In this document: one piece after another, positions 4,053 to 22,039 of the stretch
Numbering within the stretch: position 1 is the first letter of the stretch
Layout: every line of letters begins with the position of its first letter
Assembly: GCF_000981785.2 (NCBI RefSeq)
Contig: NZ_CP011304.1
Coordinates: 3,210,001-3,242,000, forward strand
From: Microcystis aeruginosa NIES-2549
GTDB taxonomy: Bacteria > Cyanobacteriota > Cyanobacteriia > Cyanobacteriales > Microcystaceae
Direction: 5' to 3'
Length of the DNA stretch: 32,000 nt
Translations under genes and position numbers: made by a program
Notes under the pieces: model-generated
Seen by the model: the letters and a program-made list of their open reading frames with translations, nothing else
Databases searched by the model: none
Told to the model about the DNA's origin: nothing

Positions 4053-7000
4053 ATGAGTAACACGAAAGTCAGAATTTACGATTTATCAAAAGAATTGAAT
4101 CTAGACAACAAAGACATTTTGGACATCTGTGACCAGTTGAACATCGAGTACAAGAGCCACAGTAGCACGATCAGCGAAGAGGAAGCCCAACGCATCAAGG
4201 CGATCGCCGCGAAGGGAGTTACCTCGGGTATCAGTAAAAATAGCACGGGTCAGCGAGAATCGGCTAGTCCTGCCGAAGAAAAAAAACAAAAGATTTTAGC
4301 CCTGCATAAACACAACCGCCCCGAAACCGGCGAAGATGGGCTAACCTATCCCGGTTCGGTCGGTTCCTCGGCCAAACCGACTTTAATCAGTCCCCCTCGT
4401 CCCCCGGTTAAACCCCTTGTCGCTCCCCCGGGGCGCGACGCTGTGGCCGAAAAAACTCCCCCCACCGCTGCGGAGATGCCATCTCAGGCCCCCAGTGTTA
4501 AAGAAACCCCGACCGAAACCCCGCTAGTGCCAGAAGTATCCCCCACCTTAATCGCGCCCCCTAATCGACCCTCCCTCACCCCGAAACCACGCCCGGGCAG
4601 CGCCTCGGACCGGCCAGAACCCCGACCTAAAAATGCCCCTGGCAGTAACGACAGGCCTCCTTGCCCTGAGCCAAGTCGAAGGGGGGGAGAAAAACGCGAG
4701 CGCGGCGAGAGCGAAAACGCCCCTAGTCCTGAGCGCAGGGTTAGCTTGGCTAAACCAGAAAAACCGACCCTCAACCGCAAACCCGACGGAAAAAGCCCGA
4801 AACTGGCGGAACCAGCTAGAGAAGTGCGGGAGACGGCGGAATTGAAGCGCCCGGTTCGCCCTGGTATGCCCGCTAAAATCTCGGCTACTGGCGAGGAAGA
4901 AACCGACACCACCAAGAAATCCGGTGTTGATGGCACAGAAATCGATACAGATACCGGATTGCTCGGAGCAGACGGACCCAAAAAACTCAAACGACCGACC
5001 ATGCCCCCTCGCATGGCCAAAAAATCTACCTGGGAAGAAGAAGAAGAAGAAGAGAAAAAAGCGGCCAAAACTGCCAAAACTGCCGGCAAAAACAAACGCC
5101 GCACCCAAGCCCTCTTTGAAGATGATGATGATCTAGAATCGGAACTATCCGGGTTAATTAATACCCCCAGTTTTACCCTTTCCACCGCTCGTCCCCCCAA
5201 ACCGCCCAGCGCTAAAGCAACCACCCCCGGCACCCCAACAGCAGTCAAAGTTAAGCGCCCCAGTAAACCAACCGCCCACACCGGCAGCCCGAAAAGCGAG
5301 CGCCAAGAACCCCAAGAGGAAAAACGCCCGGAAAGCATCATCATCACTGGTAGTCTAACCGTGCGCGACCTCTCGGAATTGATGAAAGTCCCCGAAACCG
5401 AGATCATCAGAACCCTATTTTTTAAAGGGATGGCGGTTAATATCACCCAAACTCTCGACGTGGACACGATCGAAATGATCGCCAGGGACTTCGAGATGAC
5501 CGTGGAAACCCCCAGCACCCAGTCGGCGGCGATCAAAACCACGGAAATGATCGATGTCTCCGACTGGGAAAGTCTCCAGCGTCGTCCCCCCGTCGTCACC
5601 ATTATGGGTCACGTTGACCACGGTAAAACCACTCTCCTCGACTCGATCCGCAAAACCAAAGTCGCCCAGGGGGAAGCCGGCGGCATCACCCAGCATATCG
5701 GTGCTTACCACGTCGATGTGGAACATAACGGCAAACCGGAACAGATTGTCTTTTTGGATACCCCCGGCCACGAAGCTTTTACCGCCATGCGGGCCCGCGG
5801 GGCGAGAGTCACCGATATAGCGGTGCTGGTGGTGGCCGCCGATGATGGCGTACAACCCCAAACGAAAGAGGCAATCAGTCACGCCAGGGCCGCCGAAGTC
5901 CCCATCGTGGTGGCGATTAACAAAGTCGATAAACCCTCGGCTAACCCCGACCGGATTAAACAGGAATTGACCGAACAGGGACTGGTGGCCGAAGATTGGG
6001 GCGGTGAGACGATCATGGTTCCCGTTAGCGCCCTGCGGGGTGAAAATCTCGATAATCTGCTGGAAATGATCCTCTTGGTGGCAGAAGTAGAGGAATTGGT
6101 CGCTAACCCCGATCGCCTGGCCAAGGGAACCGTCATCGAAGCTAACCTCGATCGCACCAAAGGTCCCGTGGCTACCCTGCTCGTCCAGAATGGCACTCTC
6201 CGCGTCGGTGATAGCATCGTCGCTGGTTCCGTTTTCGGCAAAATTCGGGCCATGATCGATGATCGCGGTCAAAAAGTCGAAGCGGCCACCCCCTCCTTCG
6301 CCGTGGAAATCCTCGGTCTTAGTGATGTCCCGGCCGCCGGCGATGAATTCGATGTCTACGAAAGTGAGAAAGAGGCCCGGTCGATCGCTGATCAACGGGC
6401 GATCGAACAACGCAACACCCGTTTACAACAGGCCCTCTCCTCCCGTCGCGTTAGCCTTAGCACCCTCTCTATCCAAGCTCAAGAAGGACAACTCAAGGAA
6501 CTTAATCTCATCCTCAAGGCAGATGTGCAAGGTTCCGTCGAGGCCATCCTCGGTGCGCTTAAACAGTTACCCCAAAACGAAGTGCAGATTCGCGTTCTCC
6601 TCGCCTCTCCGGGGGAAATCACCGAAACCGATGTGGATCTGGCCGCCGCTAGTGGTGCGGTGGTGGTGGGCTTTAATACCACCCTGGCCAGTGGGGCCAG
6701 GGCTGCCGCCGATCGGGAAGGAGTAGATATCCGCGATTACAATATCATCTACAAGCTCCTCGATGATATTCAAGGGGCGATGGAAGGTCTTCTCGACCCC
6801 GAAGAAGTGGAAGAACACCTCGGTTTCGCCGAAGTGCGTGCCGTCTTCACCGTCGGCCGGGGAGCCGTGGCGGGCTGTTATGTCCAATCTGGTAAACTGG
6901 TGCGGAATCGCTTCCTGCGCGTGCGTCGCGGCAAGGAAATTGTTTATCAGGGAGTTCTCGATTCCCTCAAACGGATGAAGGAAGATGCCCGGGAAGTAGC

Positions 7001-16522: not shown

Positions 16523-17758
16523 TTAAGAAGGATTAATATTTTGTGGCGTGCCACAATGATAACAATAGGGCATAAATTTATAAGTTAAATTATGACAATG
16601 AGGACATTCGACATATTGAGCATAACCACAATGAGGACAATGTGAATGATCATTATGAATTTTTTTACCGCAATTTAAACAACGAGATTTTTCGACTCTT
16701 TTACTAGCTTGAGTTTTAGGATTAAAAACAATTTGTTGGAAAAATTTGATGATACCAAAACCAATGGCAGGGATTAAAAATATATATAAATAATTAATTA
16801 AAAATACTAAACCACCGAAAATAACGGTAATAATATCAAAAATAAATTCAAAAATAACTCCTACCTGCAAAAATTCAAATATTTTAATTAGTAATGGAAT
16901 AAAAAAGATAACTAATAAATGCCAACTCATTAAAGAAAGCAATCCATATCCCTTTTCTATGGATAATTTATGGACAAATAAACTAATAAAGATTAGAGGT
17001 AATAAGAAGATAAGTTGGAAAATAATTTGAATAGATGGATACCAAAATGAAGCTTTTTCATAACCTTGTTTAACTTCACTAAATTTAACCTCTGAATTTA
17101 ATAAAGAAAGAAAACTGACGGTTTCAGAAGTGGCTAATAATTGTTGTTTTAATTCCTTAATTTCTGTCTTGAGATTATTAATATTAAGGTTATTTTTATC
17201 TAATTCTTGCTTTGCTTTTTGGGCTTCAACTTCATTGATGGATAAATTACTAGGTTGACCTACAATTTGTTCTAATAAACTAGAGTCATATTGACTGCGA
17301 ATAGTACGATTTTTTTCTTGAAGGGAAGTTACTTGTTTTTGCTTATCTTCTATGGTAGTGAAAATTAGCTTATTATTCGGTTGATTTATATTATTTTTAA
17401 GACTGGCAAAATTAACACAAATAGGAGATACTTTTCCTAAGTGTCTTTCTGGAGATTGGTCATAATTTTCGGGGATATAGGGAACTCTATTTAAATTTAA
17501 GATTTCACTTACTATTAAAAAATCTCGATCGCTATTTTTATTTTGTTGATAACTTTGCCATTGATCATAACAAGGATAGGCTTGAGAAGGACTTAAATAC
17601 CATCTACTAATACTATCTAATCCTAAAAAAACGTTAATGAGAATAAACAAATCAATAACAATAATAACCGTTAAACTGATTTTATTAACTGGTTCATTAT
17701 TAATGTTTCTTGATTTTGTAAAAAATAGATCAATAAAATTTCTTATTTTTCTGAACAT
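16523..17758 (-). CDS. AT-rich membrane protein with central coiled coil and C-terminal double zinc ribbon (unknown function), nested between CRISPR-type repeats
   Basis: 411 aa with an N-terminal TM (LTVIIVIDLFILINVFLGL), an N/K/Q-rich coiled segment, three or four TM segments at about aa 240-340, and then CLNCGKKIHNDHSHCPHCG...CPHCHNLTYKFMPYCYHCG. One 60-nt line hand-counted at about 20 % G+C. It is the only long ORF in the region. Confidence 0.6.
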   Translation of the reverse strand: MFRKIRNFIDLFFTKSRNINNEPVNKISLTVIIVIDLFILINVFLGLDSISRWYLSPSQAYPCYDQWQSYQQNKNSDRDFLIVSEILNLNRVPYIPENYDQSPERHLGKVSPICVNFASLKNNINQPNNKLIFTTIEDKQKQVTSLQEKNRTIRSQYDSSLLEQIVGQPSNLSINEVEAQKAKQELDKNNLNINNLKTEIKELKQQLLATSETVSFLSLLNSEVKFSEVKQGYEKASFWYPSIQIIFQLIFLLPLIFISLFVHKLSIEKGYGLLSLMSWHLLVIFFIPLLIKIFEFLQVGVIFEFIFDIITVIFGGLVFLINYLYIFLIPAIGFGIIKFFQQIVFNPKTQASKRVEKSRCLNCGKKIHNDHSHCPHCGYAQYVECPHCHNLTYKFMPYCYHCGTPQNINPS

Positions 17759-19163: not shown

Positions 19164-19449
19164 TGTCAAGAAAATTTAGTCATTCTCAATAAATTCTAGA
19201 CATTCTTGACCGGTGAAAGCCTCCACTGGTCTAATATTGGTCTTCTCAATTGCGATCAAAATGACTAGAGATTTTTCAGTATCATGAGGTACAGTAGCTA
19301 ATATCAGTTATCAGTTTTTTAGCCATCAGACTTGGGCGTGAGCTTTTGTCGAACGCTTGTTTCTCCCCCTTCCCTAAAACTGGAGACTTTGTATCTCACC
19401 AGTATCAGAATTGCGACAATATTTGGAAAACTTTTGTAACTCTAGTTTT

Positions 19450-20322
19450 CTATAAATCTAAATTTTCAATATTGCTTTGGGCCATAGACAAATGATCAAG
19501 ATCCAGTGGATCACTGTCAACATAATCTTTTGCGGTCATATCTTCTAAGCTTACTACTAAACCATCAGACTGAAAACGTCCAGAGTTAGGTAATAAATTT
19601 AACCACTTATCTAGCCATTTGTCCCATCCAATGTCATTATAGTCCTCTTGTTCTTCTTCACGAATAAAATAAAACATAAGTTCAGGATTTTCATCATTCC
19701 ACGAAGGTCTTGCACTAACTCTAATTTCCCGCAAAGCTCGTAAGGCTTCCCCTTCATCACTTTGTTTAGTATGCTTATCTTGCATCCGTTTTTGAAGTTT
19801 ACTGACAAATTGAACAAAATCATCTGGAAAAGCAAAACGGATTCTTTTTCTTGCTATCGCTTGTGCTAAGAGTCTTTTTTCTTGATCAGTTACACAACCC
19901 TGTTGACGATTCCATTGTAAGATCAATGCTTTTTCGACTGTCATTACCCTATCGAGATCAGCTACTAAGTTTAGTTTGGCAACTCCTTCAATGTAAACGT
20001 ATTGAGGTCGTCTGCCTTTTTTTATCTCACTAATTTTTTCAGCTTCAATTTCTACCAGAGGAACAACTTCTAGAAAAGGACGTTCACAACAATAACGGAC
20101 AATATCGCAAGTTTGTGTAACAACAACTAGACCTTTTACTTCCGATTTTACAAGATCATTTTCTTCAGCATCTTGCTTTGTAGAATCAGGTGTAAGAGGA
20201 AATTGAGGATTAAATCGATGAACAAACCGCTGTTCTCCTAAAACAAAATCCCCTTGACACCATGTTTGTAACTCATTGTTAATGAGATCAATCTGTTTGC
20301 TTTCCACTGCGATTTTGACCAC
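19450..20322 (-). CDS. hypothetical protein, third gene of the AT-rich three-gene cassette (candidate effector/toxin)
   Basis: 290 aa. The only plausible starts are GTG 20322 or GTG 20307, and both lie inside the 3-prime end of the upstream ORF. No family recognised. Motifs: GDFVLGE...GLVVVTQTCDIV...LEVVPLVEI, KRIRFAFPDDF, and an acidic, W-rich C-terminus. Confidence 0.6.
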   Translation of the reverse strand: MVKIAVESKQIDLINNELQTWCQGDFVLGEQRFVHRFNPQFPLTPDSTKQDAEENDLVKSEVKGLVVVTQTCDIVRYCCERPFLEVVPLVEIEAEKISEIKKGRRPQYVYIEGVAKLNLVADLDRVMTVEKALILQWNRQQGCVTDQEKRLLAQAIARKRIRFAFPDDFVQFVSKLQKRMQDKHTKQSDEGEALRALREIRVSARPSWNDENPELMFYFIREEEQEDYNDIGWDKWLDKWLNLLPNSGRFQSDGLVVSLEDMTAKDYVDSDPLDLDHLSMAQSNIENLDL

Positions 20323-20962
20323 TACTCAATGTTTTAGCAGGTCTAGAACGTCCAACATCATGATGAATAGAATCTTGTAAAGCATCAATTAATATCTCCG
20401 GTGGTAAAGGCCTACGAAGCTCACTCTCCTCCTCAGACAAAGGTCTTAATTGCGGTCTTTTGGGTGGATTACCACGCCCAAGATTCTCTCTTACTTTATC
20501 ATATTCTCCTGATATTAATTGGTCTAAAGGCAGTTCCCCATCAGCATTAGGCTTCAATAATAACTTACGGTTAAGACTTGCACTTCCTCGATCAATATAT
20601 CTAATCACTCCCAGTAATCTATTTAATTTCTCCTCATTGTCACTAGCTAGAGGCTGTCCACTTGCCCAAAAATGAATGCTTCGACGTGAAACATTAAATA
20701 GTTTGGCAACTTGCTCCCAGGTCAGTCCACTGGTTTTTCTGAGTTCATTAATCGCTTTTTGACTATCTTGAAAAAGATGAGGATTGTGCTTCGGAATAAC
20801 TATTCCGCTATTAGTTCTTTCTGAAATCGCTAGTAACTTTTGAGCGTCAAGACTACCAGAGCTAATGGTACTGGATTCCGCAATACCAGCAAACATTCTA
20901 AATGGTTTTTGAGGATTGATTGATCTAAAAGTATTTGAACGTTCAAGCACTGAGTTACTCAT
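20288..20962 (-). CDS. Xre-type helix-turn-helix protein, antitoxin-like (second gene of the cassette)
   Basis: 224 aa with the HTH LTWEQVAKLFNVSRRSIHFWASG, followed by EEKLNRLLGVIRYI...LLLKPNADGELPLDQLISGEYDKVRENLGRG. The ATG overlaps the upstream stop (ATGA at 20962-20959), with GGAGG 6 nt upstream. Confidence 0.7.
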   Translation of the reverse strand: MSNSVLERSNTFRSINPQKPFRMFAGIAESSTISSGSLDAQKLLAISERTNSGIVIPKHNPHLFQDSQKAINELRKTSGLTWEQVAKLFNVSRRSIHFWASGQPLASDNEEKLNRLLGVIRYIDRGSASLNRKLLLKPNADGELPLDQLISGEYDKVRENLGRGNPPKRPQLRPLSEEESELRRPLPPEILIDALQDSIHHDVGRSRPAKTLSSGQNRSGKQTD

Positions 20963-21774
20963 TGTTCACCTCCAAAGCGTCTGAGAAATTCTTCGGTTAC
21001 TGACCATCGGAAAAAAGTATAAATTCTTTCAGAAAATCGTTTTGTATCCTCTAAAATTTTTTCAACGTCAAATTCTTGATTCTCTGAAATAGACATATCT
21101 AAATCAAGAAACCAACTCGGTTGATCAATCGGTTCAAAGACATTTGGATCAAAAGTAGCGTTACCTGGAATCAATCCCCATCTTGCTAAAAGTGTCTCTT
21201 TGGTATCAGGTAACTGAAACAGAGATTCATTATAACTTTGAATAATATGTTCTTGAAATGTTGACGCGGTGATATTTATCAGTTCTGATCTGACTAAATT
21301 AGAAATATTCCCTACATCAATACCCTCAATACGATCAACATATCTAATACCGATTCGCTCAACAAGGTTGGGTTGAATATGTTCATTAACCGCAGTTAAA
21401 ACTTCTCTCATTCGCTCTAAAAAGTCCTGACGACTGACATACTTTGATGTGTCTAAGGTGACAAAATTAGATGCTAATGAGACTCGCCAATGATTATTGA
21501 CATCTGTAAATCGCCAGATAACCTCAGCTTGAGATCTGACGGCATCTTTTTCTTGATTATCAAAAGTTAATTGATAAGTTCGTTCCTGCCGTAACTTAGG
21601 ATACTTTGTTCTAATAGCTTCCTGAAATGGAGTCACAAATTTCCTATCCTCAACGGCCAGAATTTGTGGGAACCGTACTTGTCCAAGCACACACACTAGA
21701 GGTGCATTAGTTAAGTGAACCTCTGGAGGAGTTGGATCGATCAGTGGATTGTTAATACCGACCACTTTGGACAT
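20959..21774 (-). CDS. TIGR04255-like uncharacterised protein (first gene of the cassette)
   Basis: 271 aa. The N-terminal LTNAPLVCVLGQVRFPQI and the central RIGIRYVDRI match my memory of the TIGR04255 family pattern (aPL.ev..el.F ... RiGLRYiN.i). AGGAG lies upstream of the ATG. Confidence 0.65.
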   Translation of the reverse strand: MSKVVGINNPLIDPTPPEVHLTNAPLVCVLGQVRFPQILAVEDRKFVTPFQEAIRTKYPKLRQERTYQLTFDNQEKDAVRSQAEVIWRFTDVNNHWRVSLASNFVTLDTSKYVSRQDFLERMREVLTAVNEHIQPNLVERIGIRYVDRIEGIDVGNISNLVRSELINITASTFQEHIIQSYNESLFQLPDTKETLLARWGLIPGNATFDPNVFEPIDQPSWFLDLDMSISENQEFDVEKILEDTKRFSERIYTFFRWSVTEEFLRRFGGEQ

Positions 21775-22009
21775 TTTAGGCTATTTATCTCCTATATTAA
21801 GCGTTTTTAGCTAATAGAACACAATAACTATCGGAATAACTGTTCTGCATCTCCATTGTACGGCAAGACTGTGAAATAACCAGTGAAGTTTAAGAATTGC
21901 TATATTTAATTTTCCGATCGATTCTCTCTCTACACCTTCCCCCTCTCTCTGCGAGATGGAGTGGTTGATAATGCCATTAACCCACCCCATTTCCACAGAA
22001 AAGGGCTAA

Positions 22010-22039
22010 ATATCAAAATTCCCCCTAAAACTAGGGGGA
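22010..22039 (-). terminator. rho-independent terminator of prs
   Basis: On the minus strand, 9 nt after the prs stop, TCCCCCTA-GTTT-TAGGGGGA forms an 8-bp stem with a 4-nt loop and is followed by ATTTTGATATTT. Confidence 0.7.

Follow-up and report, generated by a model that had tools for sequence, protein, structure and literature searches.

A strain-variable three-gene cassette at the prs-lepB junction of Microcystis aeruginosa NIES-2549 encodes a TIGR04255 protein, a helix-turn-helix protein and a protein with a predicted MazF-type fold

This study focused on a group of three genes lying between prs and lepB in Microcystis aeruginosa NIES-2549, within a 32,000-nt stretch of contig NZ_CP011304.1 (positions 3,210,001 to 3,242,000, forward strand) that is referred to here as the window. 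A first-pass annotation, made from the sequence alone, had pointed to these genes as a candidate undescribed toxin-antitoxin (TA) or anti-phage module. The three open reading frames (ORF1, ORF2 and ORF3) overlap one another on the minus strand, form a unit that recurs in one order in many phyla, and sit in Microcystis on an insertion that some strains carry and others lack. The features of the locus, in window coordinates, are as follows.

19176-22006, minus strand: the whole inserted cassette, 2,831 bp, with breakpoints taken from an empty-site alignment
21870-21888, minus strand: putative operator, the tandem direct repeats CTTCACT and TTTCACA, 12 nt from start to start and ending 9 nt upstream of the -10-like hexamer
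21855-21860, minus strand: -10-like hexamer TACAAT, read from the sequence; across loci, TAnnAT recurs at a constant distance from the repeats
21775-21854, minus strand: conserved leader upstream of ORF1, probably a 5' untranslated region
20959-21774, minus strand: ORF1, 271 aa, TIGR04255 family protein
20969-20973, minus strand: GGAGG, ribosome-binding site of ORF2 within the 3' end of ORF1, read from the sequence
20288-20962, minus strand: ORF2, 224 aa, with an Xre-type helix-turn-helix (HTH); putative repressor and antitoxin
19450-20307, minus strand: ORF3, 285 aa from the GTG at 20307 (290 aa if from the GTG at 20322); putative effector or toxin
19903-20307, minus strand: N-terminal domain of ORF3 (about aa 1-135), predicted MazF/PemK-like fold from Foldseek
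20104-20118, minus strand: TQTCD motif of ORF3, its Cys invariant in 121 family members
19453-19902, minus strand: C-terminal domain of ORF3 (about aa 136-285), alpha/beta, with the conserved acidic tail LDLDxLS

The coding layout was largely as first annotated. The ORF list bore out three closely packed minus-strand genes, and reading the sequence confirmed that ATGA at 20962-20959 provides both the stop codon of ORF1 and the start codon of ORF2, with GGAGG 6 nt upstream; an identical 4-nt overlap was found in loci L001, L002, L004 and L105. Two GTG codons in frame with ORF3, at 20322 and 20307, are both present inside the 3' end of ORF2 (stop at 20288), and homolog alignments favour the latter, giving a protein of 285 aa and a 20-nt overlap with ORF2. 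The TACAAT box, which had been placed about 80 nt upstream of ORF1, lies 81 nt from its ATG, and the prs terminator hairpin said to adjoin the cassette was located at 22039-22020. The loop of this hairpin is inverted between strains, reading TAGTTTTA in the window and TAAAACTA in L087, L005 and L094, while its G+C stem is unchanged despite the inversion (window 22020-22039 compared with L087 6003-6022). A perfect palindrome with 7-nt arms, CGGAATA-GT-TATTCCG, occurs in ORF2 at 20791-20808 and is identical at 16 of 18 positions to 21831-21848 in the ORF1 leader; it was rejected as a signal, the similarity being estimated as about chance level for 3 kb of AT-rich DNA.

In Microcystis the cassette is a strain-variable accessory insertion. 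The junction was surveyed in assemblies encoding proteins identical to the Prs and LepB of the window, and was occupied by the trio in L085, L086, L088, L090, L092, L094, L095, L097, L099 and L100, and empty, with prs and lepB 53 bp apart, in L087, L089, L091, L093, L096, L098 and L101-L104. Occupied and empty junctions were about equal in number when similar places were counted too, with about half of the sampled Microcystis assemblies free of the insert. When the empty site of L087 was aligned to the window, both breakpoints fell on L087 position 6035. Because occupied and empty junctions differ at a single breakpoint, the cassette is an accessory insertion and not part of the genus core, as the first-pass annotation had implied. 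The empty-site alignment gave no target-site duplication beyond a 4-nt ATTT microhomology, and a search for terminal inverted repeats at the insert ends found none. The insert is indeed AT-rich: its G+C content is 37.6%, where the window as a whole has 44.7% and lepB and prs have 47-51%. Yet 11% of the segments of equal size in the window are as AT-rich, and the missing HIP1 site, GCGATCGC, offered earlier as a further clue, is uninformative because only 0.8 sites would be expected. Base composition and the absence of HIP1 are therefore too weak to serve as evidence of an island.

ORF3, previously described as an orphan, proved to have 2,051 homologs at E<=1e-3 in a word-indexed search, and an exhaustive profile search placed the family in 1,403 clusters at 50% identity, almost all of them single proteins of about 280 aa. 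Searches of the PDB by sequence, with ORF3 singly and as a profile, gave no match, nor did those of Pfam, NCBIfam, PADLOC and PHROGs, and no family model fitted any of 121 members. An AlphaFold model based on 25 close homologs reached a pLDDT of only 59.5, whereas the final model, for which an alignment of 121 sequences was used, gave a pLDDT of 93.7 and a pTM of 0.86. When this model was compared with the PDB by Foldseek, the top 26 matches were all MazF toxins, covering approximately the first 135 residues (E down to 7e-4, probability 0.93-1.0, target TM 0.45-0.62), and PemK-like proteins headed the matches in the viral structure library BFVD. By its predicted structure, then, the N-terminal domain has the SH3-like barrel fold of MazF/CcdB-type proteins. 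The C-terminal ~150 residues returned weak Foldseek matches, none of them convincing. Five residues are invariant in the 121-member alignment, namely Q18, D20, G59, C67 (within TQTCD) and R157, and distant homologs carry SHDCD or SQSCT in place of TQTCD.

In ORF2 a variable N-terminus precedes an Xre-type HTH at aa 68-107 (nt 20642-20761), and the C-terminal region holds ~100 residues that are conserved and rich in proline. The window protein itself scored below the Pfam cut-offs for HTH_3 (21.7 bits, cut-off 23) and Xre-like-HTH (PF20432; 14.7 bits, cut-off 25.8), but the HTH annotation held across the family, with HTH_3 in 30/30 homologs and PF20432 in 29/30 at E<=0.1 (best 2.5e-5); there was also a weak PDB match of the HTH to the antitoxin MbcA (E=0.055). 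The DUF2384-like C-terminal domain that had been attributed to ORF2 was not supported, as the corresponding profile (PF09722, Xre_MbcA_ParS_C) matched neither the window protein nor any of the 30 homologs, and a loosely similar pattern noticed by eye (LLxPNxDGxLPxDLL) does not count as evidence. No RES or ART profile matched either cassette neighbour of ORF2, which agrees with the earlier statement that it is paired with neither a RES nor a ParT toxin, and the same holds for MbcT. The accompanying statement that both partners are proteins of unknown function needs revision, given the predicted MazF/PemK-type toxin fold of ORF3. Against PADLOC-DB v2.0.0, ORF2 gave only a chance-level HTH match (mad1, E=0.032).

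The assignment of ORF1 to TIGR04255 was confirmed at E=2.5e-52 (178.2 bits, cut-off 30), with residues 21-268 spanning model positions 2-252 of 252, so that it is a full-length member. As with ORF3, no PDB match was obtained by sequence, and ORF1, singly or as a profile, likewise matched nothing in Pfam or PADLOC; in PHROGs it matched one weak family of unassigned function. Literature searches returned no publication that mentions TIGR04255 or deals with these proteins. Among the plasmid loci whose context was confirmed or examined, TIGR04255 was the first gene of a trio in 13 of 15. The clear exception was a plasmid of Rhizobium sp. CB3060 (L121 3471-5644), where TIGR04255 is followed by two unrelated proteins of 288 and 218 aa, and where these genes adjoin a multiubiquitin/ThiF/DUF6527 cluster and an IS110 transposase. 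This locus may represent a partner swap, with TIGR04255 acting as a modular component. No profile placed any of the three genes in a housekeeping pathway; such a placement had been named as one that would count against a defence or addiction module.

Conservation of the trio as a unit was assessed by searching stop-to-stop segments of 80 fetched genome loci with hidden Markov models. ORF1, ORF2 and ORF3 were complete, on one strand and in one order, in 72 of the 80 loci as well as in L084, making 73 in all, and in five of the 80 the trio was interrupted by contig ends; the last two of the 80 were L041 and L048. At L084 342-515 there is also a fragment corresponding to ORF3 profile positions 150-207, ~4 kb upstream of the complete trio, which may be the remnant of a second copy. 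Three loci were degraded. In L041, from Anabaena lutea, ORF2 and ORF3 are intact and ORF1 is replaced by an unrelated 167-aa ORF (4754-5257) that overlaps the start of ORF2 by 17 nt, so that translational coupling is kept; L123 retains ORF2 without ORF3; and in L048 an insertion sequence (IS) has eliminated ORF1 and ORF2 and truncated ORF3 at its N-terminus, making this the only case of ORF3 without ORF2. These degraded loci fit a dependence of ORF3 on ORF2 as its putative antitoxin.

The distribution of the trio is wide and sporadic. A scan of species-representative genomes found the ORF3 family in 175 species, with ~50% identity between phyla, and the groups represented include Cyanobacteria, Myxococcota, Gammaproteobacteria, Acidobacteriota, Gemmatimonadota, Actinomycetota and Deinococcota, the trio loci covering at least seven phyla. 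Trios were also present on plasmids of Acinetobacter, Vibrio, Klebsiella, Gloeocapsa, Paenarthrobacter, Rhizobium, Kocuria, Sphingomonas, Meiothermus and Mesorhizobium, in which the TIGR04255 genes share only 22-40% identity with ORF1 and yet are each followed by an HTH gene and then by an ORF3-family gene, and on all of the family's viral contigs that were long enough to assess. The architecture of these plasmid loci thus persists at identities of about 25-30%. The recurrent company of TIGR04255 with HTH and ORF3 homologs, which the first-pass annotation had singled out as worth checking, is thus found on plasmids, on viral contigs and across phyla. When E. coli genomes were searched at the DNA level with the trio from Klebsiella as query, nothing matched. 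Flanking genes were syntenic within genera and different between them, amounting to 56 independent contexts, and the within-genus synteny indicates that the trio moves rarely.

The region upstream of ORF1 carries a conserved pair of short repeats. The pattern TTCAC-N7-TTCAC was detected in 70 of 75 ORF1 upstream regions, in all phyla sampled and with a spacing that was invariably 12 nt, compared with an expectation from shuffling of 0.07 of 75 and a background in whole loci of 84 matches per 1.6 Mb. The repeats have the consensus ACTTCACACTnTACTTCACA, and a -10-like TAnnAT stands ~9 nt further downstream. In the divergent plasmid and viral loci the phased pair is kept, often in reversed orientation (TGTGAAG-N5-TGTGAAG, TGTGTAA..., TGTAAAG...), and a narrow repeat pattern occurred in 11 of 17 such loci against 0.04 in shuffles, with 1 match in the 169 kb elsewhere in those loci. 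No TTCACA repeats were present in L121, the sole locus without ORF2 and ORF3 homologs. Constant phasing together with flipped orientation is more readily explained by an operator that a protein binds than by an element of RNA or of the core promoter, and the (C)TTCACA repeats are accordingly regarded as a candidate operator. ORF2 is the only DNA-binding candidate in the cassette, and its recognition-helix region is invariant in an alignment of 30 close ORF2 homologs.

Between Microcystis and Crocosphaera the leader is ~88% identical while the proteins are only 71-74% identical, and altogether ~130 nt of leader and promoter are better conserved than the coding DNA; the leader had no match in Rfam. 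In cyanobacterial loci (e.g. L019, L001 and L021; window 21826-21848) a second conserved leader segment lies ~20-40 nt downstream of the -10 element, reading ATAGnnATAGGGAACGATAG in many cyanobacteria and GCAGAACAGTTATTCCGATAG in Microcystis, and this segment was neither conserved across phyla nor matched in Rfam. A 23-nt indel, GAGAGAGAATCGATCGGAAAATT, upstream of the operator (window ~21903-21925, minus strand) is present in the window and L088 and missing in L005 and L094.

The genomic surroundings of the trio are varied. The 147 nearest neighbours drawn from the 56 contexts were heterogeneous and belonged to 183 Pfam families, the most recurrent of which are related to defence or TA systems: Uma2, M78/CapP-like peptidases, AbiL/AriA-like ATPases, type I restriction R subunits, AbiEii and PIN. 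Single loci adjoin integrases, relaxases, IS elements, VapBC, Fic/AlpA or phage tail genes. As this census had no control it is only suggestive, and the association of the trio with defence islands is anecdotal. All three genes are under purifying selection, with dN/dS values of 0.22-0.34 against Crocosphaera; within Microcystis the values were noisy and above those of prs.

The gene order, coupling, conservation as a unit, accessory status in Microcystis, predicted fold and phased repeats were brought together in the best-supported reading, by which the cassette represents a single copy of a tripartite TA-like module that is widespread, horizontally mobile and autoregulated; the case for this was judged to be evenly poised. 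Under this scheme, one promoter would drive ORF1, ORF2 and ORF3 as a translationally coupled operon, and ORF2 would bind the two 12-nt-phased (C)TTCACA repeats, which overlap the -35 region, and so regulate its own operon. ORF3 would be the effector, its MazF/PemK-fold domain joined to another domain and its invariant Gln, Asp, Cys and Arg residues unlike the Arg/Thr of MazF; it would be toxic and neutralised by ORF2, probably through the conserved C-terminal extension of the latter holding it inactive. ORF1 would complete the module as an obligate third partner, whether by sensing or triggering or by stabilising the complex, and the whole may function in phage defence or in the maintenance of mobile elements. 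The position of ORF2, directly before the toxin-like gene as is usual for antitoxins, and its HTH of the Xre-antitoxin type, count in favour of this reading. The proposal of the first-pass annotation, an accessory, operon-coupled and undescribed TA- or defence-like module, is partly supported: the trio is kept as a unit, is not core in the genus and is assigned by no profile to a housekeeping pathway.

Several observations weigh against the TA-like reading. PF02452 (PemK_toxin) did not match ORF3 at E<=1, nor any of the 121 members at E<=0.1, and hhalign of ORF3 against five MazF/PemK sequences returned a probability of 0.3%, although the template profile was small, with one of the five sequences verified in the PDB. 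With profile-profile comparison negative, the link between ORF3 and MazF is one of predicted fold. By secondary-structure register, Q18, D20, C67 and R157 appear to lie off the catalytic Arg/Thr positions of MazF, so that the chemistry of ORF3 may differ from the RNA cleavage of MazF. No PADLOC or Pfam model and no informative PHROG matched ORF1 or ORF3. The ~50% identity across phyla seen for all three proteins is unusually high for a TA or defence system, and the neighbour census is both uncontrolled and heterogeneous. Of the 72,556 plasmid records, just 6 carried the ORF3 family and 17 ORF1, tblastn against phage records found no match to the families, and with just three degraded loci that sample is very small.

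A defence or stress system could also accommodate some of the same evidence, with ORF2 purely a transcription factor (like CapH or BrxR) and ORF1 and ORF3 a sensor-effector pair, without any antitoxin-type neutralisation. The conserved operator shows that regulation is important, ORF1 and ORF3 are the best-conserved proteins of the trio, in one case (L121) TIGR04255 has different partners and adjoins a ubiquitin-like/ThiF cluster, and the neighbourhood repeatedly includes defence genes, among them those of CapP-like M78 peptidases. Against this, ORF2 sits between its partners and is translationally coupled on both sides, suggesting a stoichiometric complex, its conserved C-terminal region extends far past the HTH, and the ORF2-ORF3 pair has been kept without ORF1 in L041; this arrangement is considered unlikely. 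A low probability was also given to the idea of a non-toxic accessory regulon, with an HTH regulator and two enzymes or binding proteins (e.g. a Cys-dependent hydrolase or transferase) serving a niche metabolite or stress substrate. The invariant Gln, Asp, Cys and Arg of ORF3 do resemble an enzyme active site more than the catalytic pair of MazF, all three proteins are strongly conserved across phyla and lack profile similarity to any toxin, and in some genomes (L004 and the window) the trio lies among housekeeping genes. However, its sporadic distribution resembles horizontal transfer, with presence and absence within one genus, its contexts repeatedly involve mobile elements, and the neighbour census showed no transporter or pathway genes that consistently co-occur. 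The MazF-type fold is not known to have metabolic members, which also tells against a regulon.

It is highly improbable that the three genes themselves drive a small self-mobile element, which would be a novel kind of integrative or transposable unit that inserted itself between prs and lepB. The insertion is clean, 2.83 kb in length and containing only the three genes and their flanks, and the trio is found at unrelated sites in different lineages, but the ends have no terminal inverted repeats and no target duplication beyond the 4-nt ATTT, and profile searches detected no recombinase, transposase or nuclease domain. The synteny of flanks within genera means that movement is rare, and the conventional integrases, relaxases and IS elements that adjoin the trio elsewhere can explain its transfer.

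Among known systems, the TA-like reading finds close parallels in MazEF, PemIK and Kis-Kid. The predicted N-terminal fold of ORF3 matches the MazF/PemK toxins, the gene for a DNA-binding partner overlaps it directly upstream, the operon is apparently autoregulated, and the unit is accessory and horizontally mobile. In contrast to those toxins, ORF3 is without sequence or profile similarity to them, is ~2.5 times longer with an extra C-terminal domain, and its conserved Q, D, C and R do not appear to be the catalytic Arg/Thr of MazF; its partner has an Xre-type HTH and not one of AbrB/MazE type, and an obligate third gene, TIGR04255, comes first in the trio. The TA systems with Xre-HTH antitoxins (ParST, MbcTA and Xre-RES; HigBA and HipBA) show the antitoxin-then-toxin order, and the ORF2 family resembles their antitoxins through PF20432 (29/30 homologs) and the weak MbcA match, but that family lacks DUF2384, its partner is not a NAD-using toxin of the RES, ParT or MbcT kind, ORF2 is about twice the length of ParS or MbcA, and the trio operator is composed of direct repeats and is not a palindrome. 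Tripartite TA systems (TAC/CmdTAC, omega-epsilon-zeta and PaaR-PaaA-ParE) likewise comprise three co-transcribed genes with a third component beside the TA pair, and the omega-epsilon-zeta repressor binds arrays of short repeats. In the trio, however, ORF1 has no SecB-like or other Pfam signature, the extra gene comes first and not last, and regulator and putative antitoxin are apparently one protein.

Neither ORF1 nor ORF3 matched a system model among the anti-phage systems catalogued in PADLOC-DB v2.0.0. For ORF3 the nearest precedent comes from type II Gabija, an anti-phage system studied in E. coli, whose split MazF-like effector GajC has a divergent MazF fold recognisable only by structure prediction and is partnered by the UvrD-type helicase GajB (PMC13069673). 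That system differs from the trio in having neither an HTH nor a TIGR04255 protein. A bolder proposal, on balance doubtful, is that TIGR04255/Xre-HTH/MazF-fold trios constitute an unrecognised, phylum-spanning family of tripartite abortive-infection or addiction systems, in which a MazF-like scaffold would have acquired a new use through a Cys-centred active site, its chemistry differing from the RNA cleavage of MazF, with TIGR04255 as the trigger sensor and a conserved 12-nt-phased direct-repeat operator controlling the whole.

A second strain-variable feature was observed on the other side of lepB. A very AT-rich ORF of 411 aa (window 16523-17758, 26.7% G+C) has a faint double-zinc-ribbon match, with small ORFs extending to about 18500. 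L088, L099, L100 and L103 carry this ORF, but L087, L095 and L097 lack it, and in these a 723-aa EF-hand gene directly adjoins lepB. It is independent of the trio cassette, as L103 has the ORF without the cassette.

TIGR04255, until now a name without a described function, is here tied to a fixed three-gene architecture, and its partner ORF3, a family of ~1,400 clusters, is assigned a predicted toxin-type fold; a candidate operator sequence is supplied as well. Should the trio prove to act in TA or defence, the known systems would gain a widespread tripartite family, with an effector that has an unusual invariant cysteine on a MazF scaffold. Trio homologs in Klebsiella, Acinetobacter and Vibrio could be studied in standard laboratory hosts. 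For Microcystis, the cassette provides a clean strain-variable marker at a housekeeping junction, and it could bear on susceptibility to cyanophages in blooms.

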